Part shown: piece by piece, positions 22,172-63,883 of the stretch | Layout: each line of letters starts with the position of its first letter | Numbering within the stretch: the stretch's first letter is position 1 | Assembly (NCBI GenBank): GCA_012797605.1 | Contig: JAAZOT010000050.1 | Span: 4,655-68,654 of the forward strand | Reading direction: 5' to 3' | Source: Spirochaetales bacterium | GTDB lineage: Bacteria; Spirochaetota; JAAYUW01 | Length of the DNA stretch: 64,000 nucleotides | Notes under the pieces: model-generated | Told to the model about the DNA's origin: nothing | What the model saw: the letters and a program-made list of their open reading frames with translations, nothing else | The model's database searches: none | Translations under genes and position numbers: made by a program

Positions 22172-22744
22172 ATGAAGACAAAATCAAATCTTCCTTTTTT
22201 ATTGATTCTTTTTTCATTATTCTTTTTTCTTGTTAACTTATCATCAATAAATTGCTACGCACAGGTAGCACCGACACTTCCACCAAATTTTTTTACTGAT
22301 GTTCCTTCAAATCATTGGGCTTATCAAGCTCTATTGAAGTTGTATCAGTTAGGGTTAATAACTGGTTATCCAGATGGAACTTACAAAGGAAATCAAGCTA
22401 TGTCGAGATATGAAATAGCTTTAGTCATTTATAAACTTCTAATTTATCTTCAGTCACAAATAAATAATACCAGCACTAATTTAACAAATACAAACTTGAC
22501 AAATGATAATTTCGAAAAAATCATCGCTGAAATATTACAAAAATCAAAACTAACTGAAGAAGAATTAAAAATATTGAAAGATCTTATAAATGAATTCAAA
22601 AATGAATTAATTTCCATGGAGAATCAGTATAAATCTTTGGAATTGAGAGTTCAAGCTCTTGAAAAAAATCAGACGGCTTTATATGTTTCTATTTCCTCTC
22701 TTGTGGTTTCTATTATTTCAATTATAATTGCCTTGGTTTTTTGA
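22172..22744 (+). CDS. SLH-domain coiled-coil envelope protein with C-terminal membrane anchor (Omp-alpha-like)
   Basis: Start moved to the ATG at 22172 (GAGG upstream). Signal peptide MKTKSNLPFLLILFSLFFFLVNLSSINCYAQ. SLH motif FTDVPSNHWAYQALLKLYQLGLITGYPDGTYKGNQAMSRYEIALVIYKLL. Heptad-rich segment, then a C-terminal hydrophobic helix ALYVSISSLVVSIISIIIALVF. Confidence 0.7.
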   Translation: MKTKSNLPFLLILFSLFFFLVNLSSINCYAQVAPTLPPNFFTDVPSNHWAYQALLKLYQLGLITGYPDGTYKGNQAMSRYEIALVIYKLLIYLQSQINNTSTNLTNTNLTNDNFEKIIAEILQKSKLTEEELKILKDLINEFKNELISMENQYKSLELRVQALEKNQTALYVSISSLVVSIISIIIALVF

Positions 22745-22754
22745 CGGAGTATTC

Positions 22755-25310
22755 ATGATTCTTACATATATCAGTAATTTTAGTATTCCAATTATTAAAA
22801 GAGTCTTTCTATTTATTATTTTTATTAGTACTATCATTTTTCTAATAAATACTTTGAGTTTCTCTTTGTATGCGCAAGAATCATCGAAAGATCAAAATCA
22901 ATATAATGAGTCAATTTATACTTATTTAAGTCCAGAAGAAGCTTATTTTATTATAACTTATTCTAATATAGATGAATTAAAAAAAATCGCTACTGCGCTT
23001 GGGATAAGTTTTTCAGATGATATCACAATTGACAACTTAAGAAAACTTCTATATGAGTATTATAATTTTAAGGAAATTAAAAAAGAAAGTTCTGAAGATT
23101 CCATCTTTATTAAAACTACAGATATAATAAATATTTCTGAAGAAGGCAAAATAATAGATCTTGTAGGTAATAATTATATAATTTATAAAGGATATATATT
23201 TAAAGCAGACAGAGTAGTTTTTTATACTGATGAAGAAACATTCTATGGATATGGAAATGTTAGTTTTAAATCATCCTCACTTGAAGCGACAGCAGAATCT
23301 TTTGAGTATTCTATTCCAAAAAAAAATGGAATACTTTATAATGCAACTATTTATATTGATAAATATATAATATCTACGAAAAAAGCAAACATTTCAAATA
23401 ATAGTGTGTTAACAACTGAAAAAGCAACTGTTACTCAATGTAATTATGATGATCCACATTATTTTTTAAAGGTAAGCAGAGTTTTATATTCTGAATCTAT
23501 AATCTATTTTTATGAAATTGAGCTTTATATAGGAAATGAAAATATGCTTTATCTACCTATCTATATTTCATATGAAAAAGGTTATGGCTATCCATTATTA
23601 TTTAGTATGGATTATGGGTATAGAGAAGGTTTCATGTTCTTTAATACTTTGAGCAAAAAAAATTATGAAATGTATTTTGATTTATATGAAAGACTTGGTT
23701 TATATATTGGTTTTAAAACTTCATTTAAATGGGCAAAAAATAGTTACAATTTATTAGCTGGATTTGCTATAAGTCCAGACTTGTTTTATTTACAAGAAGA
23801 TTATAGTTGGACAATTATTCCACCAGATAGTAAATTTTCATTATATAATATTAACTTAAGAACAGCTTTTAATGGGACATTAAAATTAAATCCTTTTTCT
23901 TCTTTGGGTATTACTATTAATTATGCTTACTATTCAGATCCTTATTTTAAATATGATTATTTTTTAAGGGAAAGATTTTTAAGATTTGATATTACCCAAT
24001 TTACTTCGTTTGATTGGGAAAATGATTATAATCTTTTTCCTTCAGCATTAATGAGCTTTAATGAAGAAGTTATAGTTAATATTAAGATATTAAAATATAA
24101 TTTAAACATATCTTCAGCTTTAAACTTTACTGCAACAAAAAATACTGAAGTAGATGAGCAGTCTCTTTTAAATTATCTATATTCTCCTAAGTATTATCAA
24201 TACTATTTGAGTTCGATTAAATGGTATTCTGCAAATTTTGGGGTTAACTTGTTCACATTTTCAAATAACTTTATAAATTTTAGCCTTAACAATTCAAATT
24301 ATTCAAATTATTATTCATATTATAATACTGATTTTGAGGTAACTAAAAAAACATTAATGGCAAATACTTCCTTAAATCCAAGTTTCTCATTTAAGTATAA
24401 CTTTTTTTCTTACTCTTTTTCTATGAATAATAATATTTCTTATTCAGAAACAATTACTGAAGGTACTACTCAGACTATTAATGAAACTTTAATCTATTAT
24501 TCTACTATTTCAAATTCAATTAATATTCAAATACCATTTGTTCGTCTTACTTTTAACATAGCTCAAAGTTACAGAAATTCTCTATTAGAACCAGTAGATT
24601 TTGGTTGGTTATCAAACAAGGCTACAGCTTCAATAATATTTAATCCATTTAGTTTTATAAGTTTTTCATCTAGTTTAGGCTATAGCTTTTTGAATACATC
24701 AAATCAAGATTTGTGGGAGATTAATCCTGAAAACTTTGATATTTTGAATCTTTCTGGTCAAATAAAAGATAAATATTTATTACTATCATGGAATTCTAGA
24801 TTTTATATTAATATTGAAAGATTTTTGTATCATCAATTTAACTTTTCAGTTAATATTCCTAAAATGAAGTTTTGGTTTTTTTGGATAACTTTATCAAATA
24901 GTATGAGCTTAAAAATAGATGAAACAAATCCATTTTTAAGTTCATTCGAAAATAATTTTAATCTTGCATTTTCTATAGAAAATCAACTTCAAATACTTTT
25001 TAGAGTTACTTCATATAATCAATTCCTATATAGATACTCATCTTTTGACGAAGCCTTTATAGATCTTATAAATTCTTTTAACTTTTTTAATTATGAAGCT
25101 AGGCTAAATTCTTATTTTGATTTAAGATCCTTATCATTATCAATAACTAGATACCTCCATGATATGACCTTACAATTTCAAATAACAGGTTCATTTGTTT
25201 TATCATCTGATAATACTCAGTATAGCTTTGTTCTTTCATATGCAATATATATAATATCAAACTTCTTAGAAGGTTATAAATATTCAAATCAATGGGAGAA
25301 TATTTTTTAA
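22755..25310 (+). CDS. Large outer-membrane beta-barrel protein with OstA/LptD-like N-terminal domain
   Basis: Start moved to the ATG at 22755 (GGAG upstream). N-terminal signal ends in SLYAQ. An OstA-like segment is present (GNNYIIYKGYIFKADRVVFYTDEETFYGYGNVSF). The C-terminal region is long, aromatic and Asn/Ser-rich, and ends in a terminal Phe (QWENIF), as in OMP beta-barrels. Confidence 0.5.
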   Translation: MILTYISNFSIPIIKRVFLFIIFISTIIFLINTLSFSLYAQESSKDQNQYNESIYTYLSPEEAYFIITYSNIDELKKIATALGISFSDDITIDNLRKLLYEYYNFKEIKKESSEDSIFIKTTDIINISEEGKIIDLVGNNYIIYKGYIFKADRVVFYTDEETFYGYGNVSFKSSSLEATAESFEYSIPKKNGILYNATIYIDKYIISTKKANISNNSVLTTEKATVTQCNYDDPHYFLKVSRVLYSESIIYFYEIELYIGNENMLYLPIYISYEKGYGYPLLFSMDYGYREGFMFFNTLSKKNYEMYFDLYERLGLYIGFKTSFKWAKNSYNLLAGFAISPDLFYLQEDYSWTIIPPDSKFSLYNINLRTAFNGTLKLNPFSSLGITINYAYYSDPYFKYDYFLRERFLRFDITQFTSFDWENDYNLFPSALMSFNEEVIVNIKILKYNLNISSALNFTATKNTEVDEQSLLNYLYSPKYYQYYLSSIKWYSANFGVNLFTFSNNFINFSLNNSNYSNYYSYYNTDFEVTKKTLMANTSLNPSFSFKYNFFSYSFSMNNNISYSETITEGTTQTINETLIYYSTISNSINIQIPFVRLTFNIAQSYRNSLLEPVDFGWLSNKATASIIFNPFSFISFSSSLGYSFLNTSNQDLWEINPENFDILNLSGQIKDKYLLLSWNSRFYINIERFLYHQFNFSVNIPKMKFWFFWITLSNSMSLKIDETNPFLSSFENNFNLAFSIENQLQILFRVTSYNQFLYRYSSFDEAFIDLINSFNFFNYEARLNSYFDLRSLSLSITRYLHDMTLQFQITGSFVLSSDNTQYSFVLSYAIYIISNFLEGYKYSNQWENIF

Positions 25311-28129
25311 TGAAAATAAAATTAAAAAAAGTAACTATTTATGGTTTTAAATCTTTTGCAGAAAAGACTCAATTTGTTTTCGATAGCGATATTACTGGAA
25401 TAGTCGGTCCTAATGGTTGTGGTAAATCGAATATAGTTGATGCAATTTATTGGGTATTTCAAAATCATAGCTTAAAAACATTAAGAGCAAATGAAAAACA
25501 GGATTTAATATTTAAAGGAAATGATATTAAACCTCCAGCTGGGTTTGCCGAAGTTGAAATTGTTTTTGATGTCTATGATACAAAAGATAATGAAATTGAC
25601 GGGACTGAAAATTTAAAAGAAGAGTTTTCAATAAAAAAAAGATTATATCCTTCCGGTGAAGTTATATATTATTTAAATAAAAAAGAAGTCAGACCAAAAG
25701 ATATTTCGGAATTCTTAAAAAATTATTCGATTAATACTATAGATTATTCAATAATAGGGCAGGGATCGGTTTCAAAAATAATTGATATGAAACCAGAAGA
25801 TAGGGTAGAACTTATAGAATCTGCTGCTGGGATTAAAAATATTAAGAATGATAGAATTAAAGCTTTTGTTGAACTTTCAAAAACCGATGAGAATCTTAAA
25901 TCAGTCTCACTTCTCTTAGAAGAACTTGAAAATGAAGTAAATAAATTAAAACAACAAGCAGATAAAGCTAAATTATATAAGGAATTAAATGAAAAAATAG
26001 TTTTTTCTGAACAAGCTTTAGCAATACTCAAATATAGAAAACTTTTAGATAATTTAAATAAATTACAGATTGATTTTGATAATAGCACTCAAAATTTGAA
26101 AAAATATGAAGAAAAAATTTTAGAGATTGAAAACTTAAAATCAAATATATCCTCTAAAATAAAAGAGATCGAGCGAAATATCAATGAGAAAAGGGAAAAT
26201 ATTTTTAAATTAGAATCAGATATTGCAGTAATTGAAAAGACTATACTTCTTTCTCAAAAAAGATATGAAGAGTTAGGGATAGAAAAAAGAAGAAAAATAG
26301 AGGATCTTCAATTTTTCCAAAATAGATTAAAAAAAATCGATGAAGTTCTATCATTTCCAATAAATGAAATAAAGGAAGAGCTTGAATATGAGATTAATAA
26401 AAAGGAAGAATTAGAATCAGAGATTACAAAAATAAATGAAAAGATTAATAACTATAATTCCAATCAAGAGAAATCTATATCTGAAGTAAAAAAGATTGAA
26501 AAGCAATTGAAAGAACTATATAAAGAACAAGAAGATTTTTTAAATGAGGAAATAACAAATCTTTTTTCAAATCTTTCAATTGCAAAGATGAAAGTCTTGA
26601 ATCTTTCAAATAATGCAAATCTTTTAAATGATGATTCAAAAATGACTCATGCAAAGTTAATTTCATTAGAAAAAAGAATAGACGATATTTTAAAATTTTC
26701 TGATTCCTCTCAATTGAATAAGTTACTTAACTATATAAATGAGATTAAAAAGGAAATAGATCTTTTATCTAAGCAAATTTCAAATAATAATGGTAGATTT
26801 GAAATGCTTTTATCTACATCAAAAGAAATTGAATCATTGTTATTTGGAAAAGATTCAATTTTTACAAAATTTCAAGAGTTTAATGATAAAATATCTTCAC
26901 TCGATGAAAAGATAGATGTTGAAAAAAACAACTTATCTTTTATAGAACAGGAACTTGCTTCTTCTTTAGAAACAAAAAATCTAATTAATAAAAGATTAGA
27001 AGAAATAAATAGAAAGATTTTTCAACTAGAAGAAAAAATAAAAAATTATGAATCAAACAAAATTAGATTGGAAAATGAAAAAGTTGAATTACTTTACAAT
27101 ATAAAGCAGAAAGAGGAAGAGATCTCTCAATTAGAAAGCAATCTCGAAAAAATAAAGAAAGAAGGAATAGAATTAATAGATGAAAAAGATAAAATATTTA
27201 AAAATAAAAAAGAGTTAGATGGACAGATTAGGGATTATGAAAAAGAAATAGATAAATATAAGGATGAACTCACAAAATGTTATATTGAAAACGAATCAGT
27301 CATAAAAGAGAAAAACAATCTTTTATCTATAAGGGAAAACTTTAATATCACAAAAACAAAGATAGAGACTCAATGCGAATCGATTAGAATGAGTTTTTAT
27401 GAAAATTATAGAATCATCCTATCAGATGATTTTATAAATAGTGAAAAGTTTTCAAATATTAAGGAATCTGAGATTAGAAATGTAATTTTCGAATCAAGGA
27501 AAATTCTTGAAGAAATAGGGCAGGTAAATTTTTTATCTATTGAAGAATATGAGGAAGTTTCCAAAAGATATAATTTTATTAATAAACAAAAGCAGGATAT
27601 TATAGAAGCAAAAGAAAAAATTATTCAATTAATAAATGAACTTGATGAAAAAATTAAAGTCAAATTCATCGATGCATTTGATAGAATTAATGAAAATTTC
27701 AAGACTATTTTCTGCGAAGTTTTTGGTGGTGGAAATGCATCTATGATTTTAACAAAACCAGATAATATTTATGAAACTGGGATTGAAATAGTAATACAAC
27801 CTCCTGGAAAAAATATTTCAAATATTTCACTTCTTTCTGGAGGAGAAACAGCGATGTCTTCTATTTCTCTTCTTTTTGCATTTTTTTTATATAATCCATC
27901 TCCATTTTGTATAATGGATGAAGTCGACGCACCTTTCGATGAAAATAATATTATGCTTTTTAAAAGGCTCATTCAAAGGTTTTCTAAGGATACTCAATTT
28001 TTCTTGATCTCTCATAATAAATTGACCTTAGAAATTGCAGATATTTTATATGGTATTACAATGGAAAATGATGGTATATCTAAAGTTGTCTCAGTTAAAC
28101 TTGAAGAGATTAAAAATGCTGCTTCATAA
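25310..28129 (+). CDS. smc: Chromosome partition protein Smc with canonical head but no recognisable hinge domain
   Basis: Start at the ATG at 25310 (TAATG overlap with the upstream stop). N-terminal head FKSFAEKTQFVFDSDITGIVGPNGCGKSNIVDAIYWVF. Q-loop IIGQGSVSKII. C-terminal head LLSGGETAMSSISLLFAFF and FCIMDEVDAPFD. At 939 aa it is much shorter than typical Smc proteins. Confidence 0.85.
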   Translation: MKIKLKKVTIYGFKSFAEKTQFVFDSDITGIVGPNGCGKSNIVDAIYWVFQNHSLKTLRANEKQDLIFKGNDIKPPAGFAEVEIVFDVYDTKDNEIDGTENLKEEFSIKKRLYPSGEVIYYLNKKEVRPKDISEFLKNYSINTIDYSIIGQGSVSKIIDMKPEDRVELIESAAGIKNIKNDRIKAFVELSKTDENLKSVSLLLEELENEVNKLKQQADKAKLYKELNEKIVFSEQALAILKYRKLLDNLNKLQIDFDNSTQNLKKYEEKILEIENLKSNISSKIKEIERNINEKRENIFKLESDIAVIEKTILLSQKRYEELGIEKRRKIEDLQFFQNRLKKIDEVLSFPINEIKEELEYEINKKEELESEITKINEKINNYNSNQEKSISEVKKIEKQLKELYKEQEDFLNEEITNLFSNLSIAKMKVLNLSNNANLLNDDSKMTHAKLISLEKRIDDILKFSDSSQLNKLLNYINEIKKEIDLLSKQISNNNGRFEMLLSTSKEIESLLFGKDSIFTKFQEFNDKISSLDEKIDVEKNNLSFIEQELASSLETKNLINKRLEEINRKIFQLEEKIKNYESNKIRLENEKVELLYNIKQKEEEISQLESNLEKIKKEGIELIDEKDKIFKNKKELDGQIRDYEKEIDKYKDELTKCYIENESVIKEKNNLLSIRENFNITKTKIETQCESIRMSFYENYRIILSDDFINSEKFSNIKESEIRNVIFESRKILEEIGQVNFLSIEEYEEVSKRYNFINKQKQDIIEAKEKIIQLINELDEKIKVKFIDAFDRINENFKTIFCEVFGGGNASMILTKPDNIYETGIEIVIQPPGKNISNISLLSGGETAMSSISLLFAFFLYNPSPFCIMDEVDAPFDENNIMLFKRLIQRFSKDTQFFLISHNKLTLEIADILYGITMENDGISKVVSVKLEEIKNAAS

Positions 28130-48500: not shown

Positions 48501-49121
48501 ATGAAAGCTAAACATGGATTTACAGTTATGTTTTTATTGATTTTATTGATAATAGTTCTTTTTGCTGTTGTATATTGGTTTAATTATCTTGGACTTGTTA
48601 ATTTACCTAGAGCTTACAGTAAAATTGTATCAAGAATTCCAGCTATATCTTATGGAAAAGATATCACCGATCCTTTTTTACTTGAGAAAGAATTTTATGA
48701 TAAATTAAAAATATCATATGAATCCCAATTTACTCAATTAAAGCAATTTGAAGAACAATTGAAATTAAAAGAAGAACAGACAAACGAAAAAGAGAAAGCC
48801 ATATCTGAATTGGAAGCTTCTTTAAAAGAAAAAGAAGAAAATATTTATAGGAAATTAAAAGAATACGATGATTATAAAGAGAATATCAAAAAAGAGGCGA
48901 TTCAGTTTATTAACATGCCTCCTGCGGAAGCTGTTAAGATACTGAACAATATGGATATTCTTAAAGTTGTAGATATTCTTCGAGCTATGGATGAATACTT
49001 TGCCTCAATTGGTGAAACATCCTTGGTTCCTTATCTTGTAAGCTTGATGCCACCAGACAGAGCAGCAAAGTTAAGTGAATATAAGATTGAGGGATCTACA
49101 ACTTTTAGTCCAGCGCCATAA
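48501..49121 (+). CDS. flbB: Flagellar protein with N-terminal TM and MgtE-N/MotE-like domain (FlbB/YlxF family)
   Basis: 206 aa with a TM helix, a coiled coil and an MgtE-N-like segment (MPPAEAVKILNNMDILKVVDILRAMD). It holds the same position as ylxF/flbB between fliJ and fliK. Confidence 0.6.
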   Translation: MKAKHGFTVMFLLILLIIVLFAVVYWFNYLGLVNLPRAYSKIVSRIPAISYGKDITDPFLLEKEFYDKLKISYESQFTQLKQFEEQLKLKEEQTNEKEKAISELEASLKEKEENIYRKLKEYDDYKENIKKEAIQFINMPPAEAVKILNNMDILKVVDILRAMDEYFASIGETSLVPYLVSLMPPDRAAKLSEYKIEGSTTFSPAP

Positions 49122-55280: not shown

Positions 55281-56306
55281 ATGACAGAAGTCCTGTCACA
55301 AGATGAGATAGATCAACTATTATCTGCTATTAGTGCTGGTGATACTACTATTGAAGATGTTTCAAAAACAACAACCCAAAAAAAGATTAGAATATACGAT
55401 TTTAAAAGACCTTCCAAATTCTCAAAAGATCAACAGAGAGCCATTCGAATGATTTATGATTCTTTTGCCAGACTCTCTCAAACAACTTTATCTGCTATTT
55501 TGAGAGCACCTGTGCAATTTCATGTTGCATCTGTCGATGAATTGACTTTTGAAGAATTTACTAGGTCGATCCCTACTCCGACCACTATGGCAATAATTAA
55601 CATGGATCCTCTTAAAGGTTCTGCTATTTTTGAGATAGATCCAGCCATTACATTTGCAATAATAGATAGAATTTTTGGCGGAAAAGGTAAAACGACTCAA
55701 AAAATAACGAGAGAATTGACAGATATTGAACAAGCAGTAATGGAAAATATTATTGTAAAGTTGCTTTCAAATTTAAGGGAATCATGGGCAAACTATGTTG
55801 ATTTAAGACCAAGGCTTGGAACTATAGAGGTAAATCCGCAGTTTGCTACAATCATAGCGCCTACACAGATGACTACACTAGTAACTCTCGAGACTAAGAT
55901 TGGTGAAAATGAAGGTATGAGTAATTTCTGTATTCCAGCTTTAACTTTGGACCCTATCATTGGAAAACTTACTCCTACATATTGGTTTTCTTCATATAGA
56001 AAAGGAAAAGGATCAGAATATTTTATTTATTTGAAAAAAAGAATCGAGGATATACCTTTAACTATAAAAGCCGAATTAGGTTCTACAAAGATTAGATTTG
56101 GTGATGTATTAGATTTAAAAGTTGATGATATTGTAGCTTTTCATAATGTAAAAGTGACCGATGATATAAATATAAAAGTTGGAAATCATACAAAATTTCT
56201 TGGAAGACCTGGTATTTTTGATTCCAAGCTATCTGTCCAAATAACAAAAGTCCTTGAATCTCCAACTTTTGAAGATATATTATCCGAGGAGGAAGATAAT
56301 GGGTGA
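55281..56306 (+). CDS. fliM: Flagellar motor switch protein FliM
   Basis: 341 aa with the N-terminal CheY-P binding peptide LSQDEIDQLL, a middle CheC-like fold and a C-terminal SpoA domain. Confidence 0.9.
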   Translation: MTEVLSQDEIDQLLSAISAGDTTIEDVSKTTTQKKIRIYDFKRPSKFSKDQQRAIRMIYDSFARLSQTTLSAILRAPVQFHVASVDELTFEEFTRSIPTPTTMAIINMDPLKGSAIFEIDPAITFAIIDRIFGGKGKTTQKITRELTDIEQAVMENIIVKLLSNLRESWANYVDLRPRLGTIEVNPQFATIIAPTQMTTLVTLETKIGENEGMSNFCIPALTLDPIIGKLTPTYWFSSYRKGKGSEYFIYLKKRIEDIPLTIKAELGSTKIRFGDVLDLKVDDIVAFHNVKVTDDINIKVGNHTKFLGRPGIFDSKLSVQITKVLESPTFEDILSEEEDNG

Positions 56307-57348
56307 TGGTGCTCTTTCTCAAAGTGAAATAGATGCTCTTTTGCAAGGTACCGATAGTTTTCTAGATATGTCTTCTGGTGGTCCAGAATCTTCTGCATTA
56401 AATGAAAATGATATCGCTACATTAAAAGAAATTTTAACAGCTATAATTGATGCACAAAGCACTACTTTGAAGATTTCTACAAATAGTGATGTTCAAATTT
56501 CTAACCCTAAAATTGATATTATCTCAAAAGATGGTCTTGCTACTTTATTACCATTTCCAGTATTGCAGGTAAGTTTACCATTTGAAGATGAATTACCTGG
56601 ATTTAATTCTTATATCTATAAAGTGTCTGATGCCCTTTTACTTGGTTCTAAAATGATGGGACAGGAAAGTAAAGAACTAACCGAAATGATTTCTTCAGCA
56701 GTTTCCGAAGCTACTTCTCAAATAATTGGTTCATCTATTACTTATTTTTCAAATACTTTTAAGATACATATCAATACTGGTTCACCACAACATCTACAGG
56801 CAAATACATTTTCAGATTTAGTATTACCTTCTGACGATGTAATCGTATTTATTACTTACAATTTTAAAATTGATAGAACTGTAACAACTTTATACCATGT
56901 TATTTCTCTTTCAATAGCTCAAGTTTTATCAAGCTTGAAACAGGGAACTAAACCATCAGCAAGACAACAGGAAAGAGTTGAAGCAGTTAAAAGTTATGAA
57001 ATGCCTTCTGAAGCTAAAACAAAGGCTACAAGAACATATCAACCAGCTGCTTTTTCAAAACTTGAACCAGTTCTTTCAGATGAAGAAAATAAAAACATCT
57101 CATTACTTTTAGATGTTGAAATGGAAGTTACTGTTGAACTTGGTAAAACCCAAAAGACGATAAAAGAAATCCTATCTATGGGTGAAGGTACTATTATAAC
57201 ACTTAATAGATTGGCAGGTGAAACTCTTGATGTTCTTGTTAATGGTAAACCTATAGCAAAAGGTGAAGCGATAGTTATAGAAGAATATTTTGGTGTAAGA
57301 ATAACAGAGATTTTAAGTAAAGAGGCGAGAATATCTTCTCTCAAATAA
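56299..57348 (+). CDS. fliY: Flagellar motor switch protein FliY (long FliN with N-terminal CheY-binding peptide)
   Basis: Start at the ATG at 56299, an 8-nt overlap with fliM. N-terminus LSQSEIDALLQG. The C-terminal FliN/SpoA domain reads MEVTVELGKTQKTIKEILSMGEGTIITLNRLAGETLDVLVNGKPIAKGEAIVIEEYFGVRITEI. Confidence 0.85.
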   Translation: MGDGALSQSEIDALLQGTDSFLDMSSGGPESSALNENDIATLKEILTAIIDAQSTTLKISTNSDVQISNPKIDIISKDGLATLLPFPVLQVSLPFEDELPGFNSYIYKVSDALLLGSKMMGQESKELTEMISSAVSEATSQIIGSSITYFSNTFKIHINTGSPQHLQANTFSDLVLPSDDVIVFITYNFKIDRTVTTLYHVISLSIAQVLSSLKQGTKPSARQQERVEAVKSYEMPSEAKTKATRTYQPAAFSKLEPVLSDEENKNISLLLDVEMEVTVELGKTQKTIKEILSMGEGTIITLNRLAGETLDVLVNGKPIAKGEAIVIEEYFGVRITEILSKEARISSLK

Positions 57349-57354
57349 AATTAT

Positions 57355-57957
57355 ATGGAAAAAATTTTAAAAATTTTTACAAAAAAAAAATTGTTTTTTA
57401 TAATATTAGTTCTATTAATTTTTGTCTTCTGTACTCAAATATTTAGCCAAGATAACGGGAAAAATGCCCCCCAAGAACAAAACATTGATGTAATAAATAA
57501 AAATCTTTCTGATCAAAATACTGTTACTGAAAAAAAAGATTCAAATTCAATTGCTTCTTTCTTTTTAAGAACCCTGATAGTATTAATAATTTTGGTTGTA
57601 ATCTACTTCTTCATTAAATATAGATTTTCAAAATCTGTAGAAAATAAATTAACAGATAAAAATTTTTCAATTTTATTGAAACAACAGATTTCTAAAAATA
57701 TCTCTTTAGCTGTGTTGGAATTTTTCGGATCCTATTATATAATTTCAATAGGTAATGATATTAACATTTTGGAAAAAATTGAAAATCAAGAAACTATCGA
57801 TGCAATTAAATTGGAAGCTGGAAAGGAGCAACCAAAAAAAACTTTTTTAGAATATCTAGGATTTTCTGCTACTAAAAGTGAAAATTCTAATGTGATTTTA
57901 AAATTCAACCAATTAAAAGAAAAGATGAATAACATAAAAAAAGGCAACAGAGAATGA
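57355..57957 (+). CDS. fliO: FliO/FliZ-family flagellar biosynthesis membrane protein
   Basis: 200 aa with a signal-like N-terminus, a central TM (FFLRTLIVLIILVVIYFFIKY) and a C-terminal segment (ISLAVLEFFGSYYIISIGNDINILEKIE) resembling FliO/FliZ. It sits directly after fliY, as in Bacillus and spirochaete operons. Confidence 0.55.
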   Translation: MEKILKIFTKKKLFFIILVLLIFVFCTQIFSQDNGKNAPQEQNIDVINKNLSDQNTVTEKKDSNSIASFFLRTLIVLIILVVIYFFIKYRFSKSVENKLTDKNFSILLKQQISKNISLAVLEFFGSYYIISIGNDINILEKIENQETIDAIKLEAGKEQPKKTFLEYLGFSATKSENSNVILKFNQLKEKMNNIKKGNRE

Positions 57958-59195
57958 GTGATAATGTTCGATTTCAGATTTCCAGATATAATCCAAATGC
58001 TGTAATAATGATCAGTGGAGATATCAATAATAAATCATTTTTTATAATACAAGAAGGATCTGTTAGGCTTTCAAGTCCTCTATCAAAGATTATTGATGAT
58101 ATAGATACTGATCTAGTAAAAGGGGATTTTTTTGGCGTAGAATCTTGTATGGCAAATTTACCAAGGATAGAAGGAGCAATAGCTACTTCTCCAACCACAA
58201 TTATTTCAATTCAAAGAGAACAATTTTCAGCACTTATACAAAGGTCCCCAACTATACCTATAAAGATAATTAAATCATTCTCTGAAAAGTTAAGAAAATA
58301 TGATCATTTCATAGCCTCTTTATCATTAAAAGCAATTAATCAATCTAATATTAATGAAGAAGATACAATCTATTGTAATGCTAAATACTATGAACAACAT
58401 TCGAAATTTCCTTTCGCTTATAAAATCTATTTAACTTATTTAAAGCATTACCCTAGTGGGAAATATTCAAATGAAGTCAAACAAAAAGCGGTAAACCTTA
58501 AACCATATATAGAAAATGTTCCTTTGGAGATAAAAGCAAATGGCTTAAATGCTAATGTTCCGAAAGATTTTCTATTGTTTGTAGAAGGTGAACCTGGAGA
58601 TAGACTCTTTATCATTCAAAAAGGGAAAGTAAATATTACCAAAATAATGAATGATAAAGAGATACTTATAGCTGTATTAAAAGAAGGTGATATTTTCGGA
58701 GAGATGGCACTTCTAGAAAATAAACCAAGAACCGCAAATGCAATTACGGCAGAGGATTGCTCCTTTTTAATTGTAGAAAGGAAAAATTTCGATGCTATGG
58801 TTACAAGTCAACCGAGTTTAACAACTAAATTAATCACATTATTATCTGAAAGATCCTGGGTAGCATATAGACAACTTGAAAATTCATTGTTAGCTGAACC
58901 TATAGCAAAAATGTGGGATACTTTACTAATTCAACTTCAGAAGAATAGAGTTCTACCTCAAGATAATGCTAGTTTTACTTTCCCTTTTTCATTTGTTGGT
59001 CTTGTAAAGATGGTTGGACTTCCAGAACATGAAGCTCCAAGATATAAAACTGAATTTTTGCAAACAAAAAAATTCGAAGAGTATGAAGATAAAATCGTAT
59101 GTAAGAATACGATGTTAATACAAAATCAGGTTGAATTTTATCAAAAAATGCTTTTGCGAAAAGAAAAGATTCAAAAATTTAAAGAAGAAACTTAA
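57954..59195 (+). CDS. Tandem cyclic-nucleotide-binding (CNB/Crp-type) domain protein with TPR-like linker and a possible C-terminal wHTH
   Basis: 413 aa, start overlapping the fliO/Z stop (ATGA). CNB domain 1 has a degenerate phosphate-binding cassette (GDFFGVESCMANLPRIEGAIA). CNB domain 2 is canonical (LFIIQKGKVNI...GDIFGEMALLENKPRTANAITA). Confidence 0.75.
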   Translation: MSDNVRFQISRYNPNAVIMISGDINNKSFFIIQEGSVRLSSPLSKIIDDIDTDLVKGDFFGVESCMANLPRIEGAIATSPTTIISIQREQFSALIQRSPTIPIKIIKSFSEKLRKYDHFIASLSLKAINQSNINEEDTIYCNAKYYEQHSKFPFAYKIYLTYLKHYPSGKYSNEVKQKAVNLKPYIENVPLEIKANGLNANVPKDFLLFVEGEPGDRLFIIQKGKVNITKIMNDKEILIAVLKEGDIFGEMALLENKPRTANAITAEDCSFLIVERKNFDAMVTSQPSLTTKLITLLSERSWVAYRQLENSLLAEPIAKMWDTLLIQLQKNRVLPQDNASFTFPFSFVGLVKMVGLPEHEAPRYKTEFLQTKKFEEYEDKIVCKNTMLIQNQVEFYQKMLLRKEKIQKFKEET

Positions 59196-59213
59196 AGAAA
59201 AGGAGAAGTTGTT

Positions 59214-61718
59214 TTGTCATCTTTATTAGATCCTCGAAAAGTTCAAAAAGATTTAGTTATTCCGAAAGGCGCATTAATTTTCTCTTTTGAAGAAAATTTC
59301 AATAAATTAAATATGCTTGAATCTGGTTCGGTACAGCTATTTATTCAGATCGATAGTTCTAAGACCGAAAGATCCATTTGCATAGCAAAAGCAAAAAGAC
59401 TTATATACCCATACACCTTATTTTTAGAAAATAAAATCCCTATTAAATTAATATCATCAGAAGAATCAGTTATAAATTCTTACCCATTTTTACAACATCC
59501 CATCTCATTTTTTTCTCAAAACTTTCAAATGGGCAAATCAATTATGGTCTCCATCTTATCTGACTTTAATGAACTTTTAAATCAATATAAATTGTTTTGT
59601 AATTATTGTATAAGTGTTGAAAAGCTTTACGATAATATCATCCTATATCTTTCTCTGTCTAGAATATATCAAAATCTAGTCATTTATTCTGAAGATTCTT
59701 TCAATATCTATAAAATTGCGAAAGAATATGAAACTTTATTTAATGAAAACAATGGTTTTTTCCCAGGACCAGATAATTTTACCTTTTTTGAAACGGACAA
59801 TTCTAAATTCATAGGTAAAAAATACGAATTTATTTTAGATAAAGATTTGATAGATCAAACAATATTAAATCTTGGCTTAAGTTTTAGAAAGATAGATAAT
59901 GAAGTTCAAAATAATATTTTTAAACAAAATCCAGATTTACCATATTCTATATGTAAATTAAGCAGTAAACAGGTAAATAACCTTATCATTTTGTTTAAAG
60001 AAAAGATAAAGCTTCTGGATTCAAAACTTGATAGACTCTTTTCAAATCAAAACAATTTGTTTTATATTTTATTAAAAGGAATTCAAGATAAATTTGGTAA
60101 AGAAAAGACAAAAGCATTTTTTGATTACCTTTATAAATACTATGAAAATTTCAGTGAAAGATATAAAGATCTTTTTCAACTAATATCACTTCCATTCAAT
60201 CTTAATATAAAAGGCGATTTACTTTATCTTACTGAAAAGAAAGAAAAGAAGGTTGAACCTCAAATAACTAAGAAAGAAGCTAGTTCAGTAGATTCAATTA
60301 TATCAGATATTTTAGAAGATAATAAAAGTGAAAGTTTTTCACTTGATTCAATAATATTGAAAGAACAAAAACCTACAACTTCTACTCAATCTAAAATTTT
60401 CAATGAATTATGTCATTTCGGGAAGATTAAAGAAGACGATTCAAAGCTTTTAGGTAAGGCTCTTGATGCTTTTGTAAAGTTATCAGACAAGTTAGCAGAT
60501 AATGAAACAGTAAGAAAGATTCATAAGGCAATAAAGACAGTATATTTTAAGTTTTATCAATCTATTTTTTTAAGATACATTGAAGAGAAGAATCCTCCAA
60601 AAATAGCTGAGAGATTCCTGAAATTTGGGATTATCGACGAGAGACTCGTAAGTCCAGAAGATATGAACAGCATCATGGAGTTTTTAGATAATTCTAAAAA
60701 TGATTATGAGATATATAACCCTATTGAATGGTTTACTTTAATATATAATGAAAAGATTGAACCATCGATTGATGAACTTGGGCAAAGCTATGCTGATATG
60801 GAAAGGGAGGAAGCAAAAAGATATAAAAAAAGTGAAGATTCCGATCTTCCAACTAATCTTAGGAAATTGAAATTTGAAATAGAATCTTTTTATCAGGTAG
60901 CATATAGAATATTGACTTCTTCTCCGTTGACTGCTATCCCAATCTTTTTTTCTGAAAATTTAAGGGGAGGCTTAAAAGATTCGATTTTATCAAAAGAAAA
61001 AATTGCAAACGAATTTAATCAGATAAGAGATCTAGATTATACCCTTTTTTTTAGAGAAGCCATATATACTCAAGGGGATACCTATGATATTTATAAAAAA
61101 GAAATCCTTCCCTATATAATTATATTACCAGGAATTGGTGATAGAGTCATAATGTGGCAGGATTGTGGTTCAAATAAATACATGCCTGCAAGATTTGTCT
61201 TTCCAGCAGTTTTTACTGGTTCTGATTTAAGCAAATCAATAGCTCAAGCATGTGCTACATTTAGATGGGAGAGCAATAAAACAATGAAGGGGCCTGGTTG
61301 GGCAGATGCTACTTCGGGAGGGATAACAGGACAATATCTTGATTATTTACAGAGTTACCAAAAGAGCAATGAGCTTTCGATGGAAGCAAAGCAACAACTT
61401 AGGGAATCTTTGAGTAAATTCAGAACAGACAGGGAAAAATTTGCAAATGATTATATCCAATGGATTTTCTTTGAATCACAGGGAATATTAAAATTGAATC
61501 TTCTTTTGAGAAGAATCTTTATTTTTGAAATTCCATTTAAAAAAGATATTCTACTTAAATTGCAAAGACTTCCAGCCTATGAAAAACTTGTAACTACATT
61601 TATAAACAAGAGAAAGATAGAACTTAAAACAAGTATCTCAAGATATAGAAAGTTTGAAGATGAAGAAGGAATTCTGCCTCCTGAAATACAAAAACATATG
61701 GAAATGCTTAAAACATAA
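59214..61718 (+). CDS. Large orphan protein (834 aa) of unknown function downstream of the CNB protein
   Basis: TTG start with AAGGAG 8 nt upstream, 18 nt after the preceding stop. No catalytic or transmembrane motif recognised. The N-terminal ~110 aa are vaguely CNB-like. Confidence 0.7.
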   Translation: MSSLLDPRKVQKDLVIPKGALIFSFEENFNKLNMLESGSVQLFIQIDSSKTERSICIAKAKRLIYPYTLFLENKIPIKLISSEESVINSYPFLQHPISFFSQNFQMGKSIMVSILSDFNELLNQYKLFCNYCISVEKLYDNIILYLSLSRIYQNLVIYSEDSFNIYKIAKEYETLFNENNGFFPGPDNFTFFETDNSKFIGKKYEFILDKDLIDQTILNLGLSFRKIDNEVQNNIFKQNPDLPYSICKLSSKQVNNLIILFKEKIKLLDSKLDRLFSNQNNLFYILLKGIQDKFGKEKTKAFFDYLYKYYENFSERYKDLFQLISLPFNLNIKGDLLYLTEKKEKKVEPQITKKEASSVDSIISDILEDNKSESFSLDSIILKEQKPTTSTQSKIFNELCHFGKIKEDDSKLLGKALDAFVKLSDKLADNETVRKIHKAIKTVYFKFYQSIFLRYIEEKNPPKIAERFLKFGIIDERLVSPEDMNSIMEFLDNSKNDYEIYNPIEWFTLIYNEKIEPSIDELGQSYADMEREEAKRYKKSEDSDLPTNLRKLKFEIESFYQVAYRILTSSPLTAIPIFFSENLRGGLKDSILSKEKIANEFNQIRDLDYTLFFREAIYTQGDTYDIYKKEILPYIIILPGIGDRVIMWQDCGSNKYMPARFVFPAVFTGSDLSKSIAQACATFRWESNKTMKGPGWADATSGGITGQYLDYLQSYQKSNELSMEAKQQLRESLSKFRTDREKFANDYIQWIFFESQGILKLNLLLRRIFIFEIPFKKDILLKLQRLPAYEKLVTTFINKRKIELKTSISRYRKFEDEEGILPPEIQKHMEMLKT

Positions 61719-61885
61719 ATCTAATTTTCTATAAATTTCTATAAAGAGTTATTTTTTTAAAATAAACTAATTTTTTCTAAAATTTTTTTTTAATAAAATT
61801 TCTTTTCAACTAAAACTTAAAAATAACTAAAGATATCCATTAAAAATTTACTAAAAACTCTTATTGTTTTCCTTTTAATTATTTA

Positions 61886-61893
61886 GCCGATAT
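61886..61893 (+). promoter_or_regulatory. Sigma-28-type -10 box GCCGATAT upstream of fliD
   Basis: Matches 8 of 8 positions of the Bacillus SigD -10 consensus and lies 112 nt before the fliD ATG. No TAAA element at the canonical -35 spacing. Confidence 0.35.
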
Positions 61894-62005
61894 TTAAAAG
61901 AAAAGAAACCAGTTGAAATTTATTATAATAGTTCTATTTAATATATATAGATTAATAGATATAGATTTGGTTTAAAAAATCTTTTAGTCAAGGAGGGCTA
62001 AAAAG

Positions 62006-63883
62006 ATGGGTAAATTAACAATAAATAATCTTACTAATTCTGGAATTGATGTTCAAAACTATATAGAACAACTTATCAAAATAAAATCCCAACCTATCGA
62101 AAATTTAAAAACTCAAAATGATTCTTATAGCAATAAAATTAAAAAACTAAATGAACTTCTCGATTTAATGAAAAAACTTCAGGATGCTTCTAAATCTCTG
62201 TTTGATTATAGATCACCTTTCGATGAAATGGTTGCGAAATCTTCAAATGAAGAATATTTTACTGCTATAGCATCTAGAGGAGTTGATATTGCAAAGAGAA
62301 GAATAGAAATTTTGCAAACTGCTAAAAGTTATAGAATTGCCAGCGATCCAATAGCTGTAGATACTAAAATAGGAAAGGTAAATTTCAGTATTCAGGTTGG
62401 TGACTCTATAAGAAGAATATCATTTGAAGGTGGAAGTATCATTGACTTAGTAAATGCAATAAAGGAACAGGCAAAAGATATCGTAAATGTAAATCTAACT
62501 TATAAGGATAAAGATACCGTTTATGTCTCTTTCGAAGCTAAAAAGGAAGGGGTAAATAGTAATATTGTATTTTCCGAAGAGATTCAACCAATATTTGAGC
62601 AGCTAGGGATATTAATAAAATCTCAAAAGTCTGAATCCACTCTTTTGAAGGTAAATTCAATTTTATTGGATTCAGGTAAACAAAATAAGGTTGATATCCC
62701 ACAATCTATAAAAGGGCAAAAATTATTTGTAACATTTAATGTTCAAAAAAAGGAGTTTACTTTACCAAGTCCGACTCAAGTTCAAGTTCCAGAAGAAACT
62801 GGCTCTGGAACTCCTATAACTATAGATCCTCAAACAGTATATCCCGATCCAGTAAACGCAAGCCAGATAATAGATACATCTAATGTTTCAAATCAACCTA
62901 TGCAGGTAAAAGTGATAGGAAGTGATGGTGAGAAAATAATAGAGATCAATTCTTCTACTCAAAATTTTACAATAGATAAGGATCAACTAGGAATAGGTGA
63001 GATAAAATCCATTGAATTTGTTAATAGCTCTAGCAATAGTTATACAATAAGTGATTTTACTGTAAAAAGCGTTCAGGAAAAGGAAGGTTTTGTTGCAAAA
63101 AATGTTATTTCAGAAGGTAGAAATGCAATAATAACTGTAGATGGAATTAGAATTGAAAAAGAATCAAATGTCATAGATGATGTTATTAAGGGTGTGACTT
63201 TAACCTTAAAAAAAGAAACTAAAGGAGAAGAAACATTATCTATTGAACCTAATACTGATTTTATGAAAGAAAAAATAATAGAGTGGGTAGGACATTACAA
63301 CAATATGATTGATTTTATTGTTAATGAAACCAAGATCAATAGAGAAGGTGGAGAAAACGGAACGTTTGCTGGAGATACATCCTTTATGATGCTTCACAAT
63401 ACTATTCAGAGATTTATGCAATCTACTTATGGAGAAGGTCCATATAGGATGCTTGCACAACTCGGCATTTCAACTGGTAAACCAGGAAATACTCCAGCTC
63501 AAAAAGGTGGATATCTTGAGATAGATGAAGCTATGCTTGATAAGGCTTTAAAAGAAAATCCTTCAAAAGTCAAAGAATTTTTTGGTTTTGATTCTGATGG
63601 AGATAGAATTCCGGATAATGGTATTGGTCAGAGGATTTTCGATTACTTAAAAGGGATGACAAATTTTTCAGATGGAACTATCAAAAAGAGAACAGATTAC
63701 TTTTCAACTTTGATTACTGGAAATCAAAAGAGAATAGAAACCTTAAATCGGCAGTTAGAGATTTATAGAGATAACTTGATATACAAATTTGCTGTCATGG
63801 AAAATCTTATCTCAAAACTTAAAAGTGATGGAAATTATATCTCAACTTATTTAGGGAATCAAAATGCAAATAGCAACAAATAA
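62006..63883 (+). CDS. fliD: Flagellar filament capping protein FliD (HAP2)
   Basis: 625 aa. The N-terminus (SGIDVQNYIEQLIKIKSQPIENLKTQ) and the C-terminal heptad region (IETLNRQLEIYRDNLIYKFAVMENLISKLK) are typical of FliD. Confidence 0.85.
   Translation: MGKLTINNLTNSGIDVQNYIEQLIKIKSQPIENLKTQNDSYSNKIKKLNELLDLMKKLQDASKSLFDYRSPFDEMVAKSSNEEYFTAIASRGVDIAKRRIEILQTAKSYRIASDPIAVDTKIGKVNFSIQVGDSIRRISFEGGSIIDLVNAIKEQAKDIVNVNLTYKDKDTVYVSFEAKKEGVNSNIVFSEEIQPIFEQLGILIKSQKSESTLLKVNSILLDSGKQNKVDIPQSIKGQKLFVTFNVQKKEFTLPSPTQVQVPEETGSGTPITIDPQTVYPDPVNASQIIDTSNVSNQPMQVKVIGSDGEKIIEINSSTQNFTIDKDQLGIGEIKSIEFVNSSSNSYTISDFTVKSVQEKEGFVAKNVISEGRNAIITVDGIRIEKESNVIDDVIKGVTLTLKKETKGEETLSIEPNTDFMKEKIIEWVGHYNNMIDFIVNETKINREGGENGTFAGDTSFMMLHNTIQRFMQSTYGEGPYRMLAQLGISTGKPGNTPAQKGGYLEIDEAMLDKALKENPSKVKEFFGFDSDGDRIPDNGIGQRIFDYLKGMTNFSDGTIKKRTDYFSTLITGNQKRIETLNRQLEIYRDNLIYKFAVMENLISKLKSDGNYISTYLGNQNANSNK

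Follow-up and report, generated by a model that had tools for sequence, protein, structure and literature searches.

We analyzed a 64,000-nucleotide stretch of DNA from a Spirochaetales bacterium (GenBank assembly GCA_012797605.1, contig JAAZOT010000050.1, positions 4,655 to 68,654 of the forward strand; hereafter the window), which has a G+C content of 29% and whose closest named relative is a metagenome-assembled genome (MAG) of Exilispira sp. Our subject is the gene X834, encoding a protein of 834 residues, which lies at the end of a flagellar operon, between the gene for a tandem cyclic nucleotide-binding (CNB) domain protein, CNB2, and the filament cap gene fliD. X834 belongs to a protein family in which a CNB-type putative sensor is fused to a previously undescribed putative output domain, and whose association with a flagellar operon is specific to one lineage. 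The gene is defined by the following features.

59214–61718, + strand: X834 gene, 834 amino acids, TTG start codon, TAA stop codon at 61716–61718; read from the sequence
59200–59205, + strand: Shine–Dalgarno sequence AAGGAG, 8 nt 5′ of the X834 TTG start; read directly

The X834 gene and its family

An earlier sequence-only reading of this DNA had given the coordinates, the TTG start, the AAGGAG at −8, a spacer of 18 nt between the CNB2 stop codon (59193–59195) and the X834 start, and a gap of 287 nt before fliD, all of which were correct on re-reading. The start of the protein is kept in homologues as (M/L/V)SS(L/I)(L/I)DPRK. Comparison with orthologues at 73% and 60% identity gave a proportion of synonymous differences (pS) of ~0.73, at which synonymous sites are saturated, and a proportion of nonsynonymous differences (pN) of 0.17–0.25; in the same comparison, the ratio of nonsynonymous to synonymous substitution rates (dN/dS) is ~0.05–0.09 in the C-terminal domain, and the linker at residues 342–390 has the highest dN/dS among the segments of the protein. 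The conserved start, the saturated pS with low pN, and the fact that the exact protein has been called on 23 metagenome contigs establish X834 as a real gene under strong purifying selection. The CNB2 stop codon, TAA, is in frame with the X834 start; readthrough from one gene into the other was considered and rejected, the spacer being 16 nt in the related locus L001, and the shared frame is probably a coincidence.

The same reading had found neither transmembrane motifs nor an established family, and this was borne out: X834 has no transmembrane segment (the maximum 19-residue Kyte–Doolittle mean is 1.24), and searches against Pfam, NCBIfam and the sequences of the PDB yielded no family or domain match for the window protein. 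The label of orphan, on the other hand, was wrong. With a word-index homology search just 7 close relatives came up, and the use of alignments A2 and A5 as queries added almost nothing to it, probably owing to low-complexity words that crowd the candidate lists. The family came to light through an exhaustive hidden Markov model (HMM) search, in which a profile of the 7 close relatives was run against 1.84 billion representative sequences and the matches were counted as clusters at 50% identity. This kind of profile search, which the earlier reading had itself suggested, yielded 532 clusters with E ≤ 1e-3, of which 343 have E ≤ 1e-30. Most members are 750–850 residues long, and the matches usually span residues ~395–833 of the query. 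Profile matches at E values of 1e-60 to 1e-110, over residues 395–833 or over the full length, place the members in one family, and X834 carries all motifs of the family's C-terminal domain: D-[FY]-S-x-F-x-R-E, M-W-Q-[ED], F-R-W-E-x-x-[KR]-T, T-x-x-Y-x-D-Y, D-Y-x-x-W-x-x-x-E and L-N-x-x-x-R.

When one genome per species was scanned with an alignment of a 15-sequence subset as the query, at least 463 loci were confirmed in pathogenic and saprophytic Leptospira, Leptonemataceae, Turneriellaceae, many species of Brachyspira and a large number of Spirochaetota MAGs. A subgroup of ~770 residues occurs in Lachnospiraceae, for example in Mobilitalea sibirica (WP_197662150.1) and Parasporobacterium. 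The family is thus conserved in the pathogens Leptospira and Brachyspira, and our literature searches found no published study of it. In the source databases its members are named 'hypothetical' or 'cyclic nucleotide-binding domain-containing protein', and some relatives 'CRP-like cAMP-binding protein'. The IMG name of one member, P0219, is 'methionine synthase II (cobalamin-independent)/CRP-like cAMP-binding protein', of which the MetE part looks spurious, given that the profile of the C-terminal domain has no match in the PDB. PADLOC gave no match for X834, and a role in defense was rejected, as no PADLOC model matches X834 or its orthologues in Leptospira and Brachyspira.

Domain organization of X834

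The full-length protein was modelled with AlphaFold2 (AF2) from a 45-sequence alignment, with a mean predicted local distance difference test score (pLDDT) of 87.8. Together with the alignments, the model divides X834 as follows.

59244–59486, + strand: CNB-fold (CRP/FNR-type) β-barrel, residues 11–91; AF2, Foldseek, and PF00027 at the family level
59388–59456, + strand: site equivalent to the phosphate-binding cassette, KAKRLIYPYTLFLENKIPIKLIS; alignment with CRP, the CNB2 domains and 44 homologues
59523–59657, + strand: long C-helix, residues 104–148; AF2, with Foldseek alignments to CRP-family chains running through the C-helix
59661–60233, + strand: all-helical, poorly conserved middle domain, residues 150–340; AF2 and alignments
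60237–60383, + strand: disordered K/E/S-rich linker, residues 342–390; pLDDT below 50 for residues 342–363 and 365–390
60393–61715, + strand: conserved C-terminal domain, residues 394–834 (~440 residues); HMM matches aligning to query residues 395–833, and AF2
61050–61214, + strand: five-stranded β-sheet core, residues 613–667, with F-x-R-E (612–615), P633, G642, M-W-Q-[ED] (647–650) and R660
61227–61364, + strand: two helices with the near-invariant residues R684-W685-E686 and T705/Y708/D710/Y711/K717; alignments and AF2

Three lines of evidence agree on the N-terminal barrel. In Foldseek searches of the PDB, the full model matches only chains of the CRP/FNR family (FNR, NtcA, CRP, CLP, CprK and GlxR) and PKG, with E values of 5e-5 to 1e-3 for the barrel. 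PF00027 is detected in 40 of the 45 family members, X834 itself falling below the Pfam reporting level. Finally, the family profile matches CNB domains in the PDB (PKG, PKA-R and CRP) with E values down to 4e-21. Because these results concur, the modelled N-terminus, a barrel followed by a C-helix, is assigned to the CNB/CRP-FNR fold class, and the suggestion that it is a third, degenerate CNB-like barrel was right. Like X834, the proteins CRP, FNR, NtcA, CprK and CLP have an eight-stranded N-terminal barrel and a long C-helix, and by analogy with this group the helix at residues 104–148 is probably a dimerization element.

The nucleotide pocket, by contrast, departs from the canonical pattern F-G-E-x-[AG]-L...R-[ST]-A, as Gly, Glu and Arg are all absent from KAKRLIYPYTLFLENKIPIKLIS. 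The alignment, in which E. coli CRP is the reference, shows this loss to be common to X834 and its clade. A canonical G-E...R-[TN]-A cassette is present in just two of 135 full-length family representatives, P0058 and P0085. Judged from these residues, classical binding of cAMP or cGMP is improbable for the barrel in most members, a situation comparable to FNR, NtcA and CprK, in which the pocket is likewise not a canonical cAMP site, and for X834 itself no canonical binding of cyclic nucleoside monophosphates (cNMPs) is predicted.

Behind the C-helix, the architecture differs from that of CRP/FNR proteins. Their output is a winged helix-turn-helix (HTH) domain, whereas X834 continues with a helical domain and, after a disordered tether, ends in a domain of 440 residues, and its cassette is completely lost. 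In the AF2 model, residues 150–340 form helices only, without wing strands, and neither HTH_Crp nor any other HTH domain of Pfam was found in X834 or the 45 homologues. The middle of the protein had been described as K/E/N-rich and helical; residues 150–340 are indeed a helical domain, but residues 342–390 are a disordered linker.

The C-terminal domain had also been noticed as compact and conserved, which the model and the profile searches support, although its size is ~440 residues rather than the ~250 proposed. Since full-length Foldseek searches are dominated by the CNB domain, residues 391–834 were modelled and searched alone. The model (AF2, 134 sequences) is a single compact domain with a pLDDT of 97.1 and a predicted template modelling score (pTM) of 0.94, in which ~215 residues of helices are followed by the five-stranded sheet and then by eight more helices. 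Across these 134 sequences, which come from two phyla, seven residues never vary (E555, D608, P633, G642, Y747, E754 and R766), and ~30 further residues are conserved to at least 90%, including R614, W648-Q649, R660, R684-W685-E686, W696, T705, Y708, D710-Y711, K717, K726, D746, W750 and N762. Polar residues conserved at this density suggest a site for catalysis or ligand binding. Foldseek found nothing significant for the domain in the PDB (best E value 0.15, template modelling score (TM-score) ≤0.17) or in BFVD (best E value 0.17), and a profile of 34 C-domains gave zero matches to PDB sequences at E ≤ 10. There is no curated Pfam or NCBIfam model for the domain, including in NCBIfam searches with the Leptospira and Brachyspira orthologues. 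One of the 45 homologues in alignment A2 matches, somewhere along its length, the Pfam family Alpha-E (PF04168), described as an 'alpha-helical domain with conserved ER motif', at an E value of 8e-4.

The domain also occurs outside CNB-fused proteins. Chromosome II of L. interrogans serovar Copenhageni (NZ_CP020413.2, 107244–109367; L097, 5230–7353) encodes a 707-residue C-domain paralogue annotated as 'hypothetical' (WP_000465640.1), which shares 25% identity over 476 aligned positions with the orthologue on chromosome I (E value 2e-47). Its N-terminus consists of a transmembrane helix and an unrelated region of ~200 residues, without a CNB barrel, and P0055 has the same membrane-anchored architecture. 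Four further proteins of 444–473 residues with a Met start (P0072, P0076, P0098 and P0111) appear to be stand-alone C-domains, but could be products of mis-called starts on short contigs. Because the domain is found with a transmembrane anchor in place of the CNB part, and apparently alone, it reads from these sequences as an autonomous module in three architectures: CNB-fused, membrane-anchored and apparently stand-alone. Whatever becomes of the flagellar link discussed below, the 440-residue module stands as a new, well-defined domain family and deserves an entry as a domain of unknown function.

CNB2 and the possible function of the pair

The gene immediately upstream of X834 encodes a protein whose nucleotide pockets complement that of X834.

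57954–59195, + strand: CNB2, 413-residue tandem-CNB protein; PF00027 at an E value of 1.2e-35, PDB CNB matches, orthologue alignment
58695–58742, + strand: canonical phosphate-binding cassette FGEMALLENKPRTANA of CNB2 domain B, residues 248–263; alignments
58128–58178, + strand: semi-degenerate cassette FFGVESCMANLPRIEGA of CNB2 domain A (FFGV...PRI); alignments

The CNB2 start overlaps the stop of fliO/Z by 4 nt. In the PDB, the protein matches the CNB domains of PKG, PKA-R, Epac and CRP with E values of 1e-23 to 1e-10, and the core of domain B, FGEMALLE-KPRTA, does not vary among 6 orthologues with identities as low as 50%, while the N/D and N/S positions do. Residues ~310–413 of CNB2 (~100 residues) have no Pfam match, and one CRP-family match in the PDB reaches residue 359. 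Judged by sequence, these last ~100 residues look like a diverged CRP-type C-terminal domain, similar to a winged HTH; if they are one, CNB2 could be a transcription factor and not a motor-binding protein.

Throughout the Exilispira-like relatives examined, as in the window, the two genes stand in the block fliM-fliY-fliZ-CNB2-X-fliD (X being X834 or its homologue), with 18-nt or overlapping junctions. The block was counted at 11 distinct loci from about eight lineages (L001–L003, L004, L006, L093, L094, L095/L096, L101 and L102/L103); L099 and L100 duplicate the lineage and contig of L001, and the partial contig L098 shows the CNB2–X pair only. Across these loci, the lowest identities are 39% for X and 50% for CNB2, and the genes beyond fliD vary (TPR-DprA, methyl-accepting chemotaxis protein, ABC ATPase, CheD). 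The clade with the most eroded X pocket is thus the one in which X always adjoins a canonical cNMP binder. This pattern of pockets fits sensing in trans, although it is a single evolutionary observation.

From these findings we tentatively propose, as a reading that is quite possible though short of probable, that in the Exilispira-like clade X834 is a signalling protein that works with CNB2 on the flagellar motor or its assembly. X834 would be a cytoplasmic protein of one-component style, in which the CRP/FNR-type barrel and C-helix serve as the sensor and dimerization part or as the partner-binding part, and the tethered C-domain of ~440 residues serves as the output, joined to them through the helical domain and a flexible tether of ~50 residues. 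CNB2 would read the cyclic nucleotide and pass the signal to X834 by protein–protein contact, plausibly via the CNB and helix modules, and the C-domain would then act from the cytoplasmic side on the flagellar motor, the switch or the export apparatus. That the gene is real, its architecture, the extent of the family, the state of the nucleotide pockets and the conserved place in the operon are shown by the results above; the CNB2–X834 contact, the flagellar target and the kind of output, enzymatic or scaffolding/binding, are inferred. The idea that X834 might be the effector partner of the upstream cNMP sensor had been raised in the sequence-only reading; it now rests on one lineage-specific operon arrangement and on the complementary nucleotide pockets.

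Several results weigh against this proposal, most of them from gene order outside the Exilispira-like clade. When ten flagellar and CNB proteins of the window were searched by tblastn against 80 loci with X homologues (L011–L090) and against L005 and L007–L010, neither CNB2 nor a flagellar operon was found beside the homologue, and the Pfam-annotated gene tables of L091 and L092 contain no flagellar genes. The pairing of the CNB protein with X834 in a flagellar setting, as first noted, therefore holds at every Exilispira-like locus examined, to 39% identity, and fails in L005 and L007–L092. In Leptospira, X lies between the gene for NamZ and genes for Ddl-like and radical-SAM proteins. In Brachyspira pilosicoli (L090, 2206–5428), it is divergently oriented next to the 23S and 5S rRNA genes and is followed by those encoding an aminotransferase, Lon protease and adenylosuccinate synthetase (PurA). 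At other loci, GatCAB, PBP2/FtsW and LeuA genes are found nearby; all of these are housekeeping surroundings. Conversely, full-length tandem-CNB proteins with 32–40% identity to CNB2 occur without X834 or a flagellar operon (L104–L114, from a profile scan of metagenomes). At one of these loci, L107, the tandem-CNB gene lies between those for enolase and a RodZ-like protein, with fliL ~2 kb away. Because neither flagellar genes nor CNB2 adjoin X elsewhere, and because CNB2-like proteins occur alone, the operon link is effectively one evolutionary event: as far as these sequences tell, the X and CNB2 families, independent elsewhere, came together in a single lineage as the last genes of a motor/switch operon and have stayed in that place. 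In addition, a promoter and terminator scan of the window gave background-level results, with no terminator-like site in the spacer before fliD, and did not delimit the transcript, and the homology, fold and motif searches assign the C-domain no role.

Two further observations on context stand apart from these. A lone convergent fliM lies 2–3.5 kb from the X homologue in 6 of the 80 loci, all Leptospirales MAGs, amid non-flagellar genes; as a flagellar link it is weak and was set aside, with TPR and unknown genes in between and no other flagellar genes around. In L008 (10622–14284), a Spirochaetota MAG, the X homologue is followed on the same strand by genes for a CHASE2 adenylate/guanylate cyclase and a GAF-HD protein, which is the only context outside the Exilispira-like clade with a hint of cyclic-nucleotide signalling.

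The strongest competing explanation, which we regard as somewhat unlikely yet substantial, is that X834 is a housekeeping or regulatory protein, perhaps an enzyme controlled allosterically by a CRP/FNR-like ligand-binding barrel, that its function is unconnected with flagella, and that its place in the flagellar operon of one clade is a neutral accident of rearrangement. The X homologues of Leptospira, Brachyspira, Lachnospiraceae and other Spirochaetota are indeed monocistronic or lie amid unrelated housekeeping genes, the pocket is non-canonical in 133 of the 135 members, so that most members probably sense something other than cAMP, and the many invariant polar residues of the C-domain look like an active site. 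An accident would not readily account for the translationally coupled spacing of CNB2 and X834 inside a motor/switch unit, nor for a block that is kept to 39% identity while its flanks change. The named lineages that carry the family are, to our knowledge, all flagellated, which we also count against a housekeeping role.

A bolder version of our proposal, for which the chances are clearly lower, is that CNB2 and X834 together make up a hitherto unrecognized receptor through which cyclic nucleotides act on the spirochaete flagellar motor, and that the unlinked orthologues of Leptospira and Brachyspira do the same. If so, CNB2 would bind cAMP or cGMP, the new-fold domain of X834 would engage or modify the C-ring, the stator or the export apparatus, and the unlinked orthologues would be the effector so far missing from the rapid control of Leptospira swimming by cAMP. 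There, cAMP made by a polar cyclase, the photoactivated adenylate cyclase LprA, rapidly controls swimming, and may or may not do so by acting directly on the motor (PMC9043183). Conserved members of the X834 family are present in Leptospira, the host of this pathway, but these orthologues lack a canonical cassette and do not lie beside flagellar genes.

It is less likely still that X834 is a structural or assembly accessory, such as a scaffold of the C-ring or export gate, whose barrel is a fossil without a signalling role. The barrel does lack all cNMP-binding residues, and X834 is probably co-transcribed with the class-II-type structural genes fliM, fliY and fliZ rather than with late genes. 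However, the family is conserved where X is unlinked to flagellar genes, P0058 and P0085 keep a canonical cassette, and in the Exilispira-like clade the immediate neighbor of X is always a canonical cNMP binder.

We give slightly less weight again, and regard as improbable, the notion that the C-domain is an extremely diverged, catalytically dead zincin-like module (M2/M3/M32, 'neurolysin-like'). It was raised by the best, non-significant Foldseek matches (ACE2/ACE, botulinum light chain, a viral M3A/M3B peptidase and a viral Zn-metallopeptidase) and by the five-stranded sheet followed by a helix with W-E-x-x-K at the place of the zincin H-E-x-x-H and by D710 ~24 residues further on, an order and spacing resembling those of gluzincins. 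These matches have E values of at least 0.15, probabilities of at most 0.07, TM-scores of at most 0.16 and root-mean-square deviations of 17–30 Å, and so are not real superpositions; the higher-probability rows are non-zincin. Moreover, the PDB holds structures of M2 and M3 enzymes, yet the C-domain profile retrieves no sequence from it at E ≤ 10, and HExxH is present in no member shown, the motif place reading R-W-E-x-x-K in all of them. Finally, that X834 is a CRP/FNR-family transcription factor for flagellar genes is very improbable: the barrel and C-helix do match CRP, FNR and NtcA, and some relatives carry a CRP-like name, but an HTH is detected by Pfam in 0 of 45 members, the region after the C-helix is all-helical without wing strands, and the additional 440-residue conserved domain has no counterpart in CRP.

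The proposed pairing of CNB2 with X834 on the motor has partial parallels in known systems, functionally the nearest being the CNB-fused effectors (Bd1971, for one) and, as regards the suggested role, brakes of the YcgR type. Like X834, Bdellovibrio Bd1971 (CNB-EAL), PKG, Epac and Mycobacterium Pat (CNB-GNAT) combine an N-terminal CNB sensor and a C-terminal effector in one chain, and such CNB-fused effectors appear among the sequence matches of both the X834 family and CNB2, but the output domain of X834 matches none of EAL, kinase, GEF or GNAT. In Pycsar defense, the effectors PycTIR and PycTM join a CNB domain to a TIR or transmembrane domain next to a pyrimidine cyclase. PADLOC models of this type recognize the CNB portion in CNB2 and in a single member of the X834 family. 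X834, however, has neither a TIR domain nor a transmembrane segment, has flagellar neighbors instead of a cyclase, and is a conserved chromosomal gene, not one of a defense island.

CNB2 resembles in design CbpA of Pseudomonas aeruginosa, in which a degenerate CNB domain is paired with a canonical one and which is reportedly a cAMP effector, other than CRP, with a link to the flagellated pole. The likeness is one of domain design, degenerate and canonical CNB domains in tandem, and CbpA is not known to have an X834-like partner. CbpA is described as a polarly localized cAMP-binding protein (Endoh & Engel 2009, as cited in PMC11139211). In most bacteria cAMP acts via CRP, and non-CRP effectors have been little studied (2024 review, PMC11139211). 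The PilZ proteins of the YcgR/FlgZ/PlzA type are c-di-GMP-dependent flagellar brakes, with YcgR homologues in Leptospirales (PMC11800159); the analogy with X834 extends only to a second-messenger receptor that would act post-translationally on the motor, messenger and size being different and homology absent. Pfam detects no PilZ domain (RxxxR, [DN]xSxxG) or YcgR in X834 or the 45 homologues. Among such systems the X834 family is a candidate link between second-messenger signalling and motility, its flagellar role resting on the gene order of one clade.

The flagellar operon and other features of the window

The remaining features concern the operon upstream of CNB2 and the spacer that follows X834.

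55281–57957, + strand: fliM, fliY/N and fliO/Z, with overlapping or short junctions; Pfam FliM and FliMN_C, the FliO match being weak
61719–62005, + strand: AT-rich spacer of 287 nt between X834 and fliD, containing GCCGATAT at 61886–61893
62006–63883, + strand: fliD (filament cap); Pfam FliD_N and FliD_C

The operon occupies 42.8–57.9 kb of the window in the usual spirochaete order: fliF, fliG, fliH, fliI, fliJ, a 206-residue open reading frame (ORF), fliK, flgD, flgE, flbD, motA, motB, fliL, fliM, fliY/N and fliO/Z, followed by CNB2 and X834, the latter being the final cistron of the fliL-fliM-fliY-fliZ motor/switch unit. In Borrelia and Treponema, fliZ is followed by fliP-fliQ-fliR-flhB-flhA. 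In the window (57355–62005), fliZ is followed by CNB2 and X834, and the operon then stops before fliD, so the export-gate genes must lie elsewhere. The 287-nt spacer is the probable end of the transcription unit. The GCCGATAT in it, ~112 nt upstream of fliD, is a good match to the σ28 −10 consensus, GCCGATAA. As a conserved site it was rejected: a similar CCGATAA is present in L001, and the spacers of L004 and L006 lack it.

Two further ORFs on the + strand have no Pfam match. One is the 206-residue ORF between fliJ and fliK (48501–49121); the other, of 860 residues (22728–25310), lies downstream of uvrA (19294–22155) and overlaps the start of an SMC-like gene (25292–28129).

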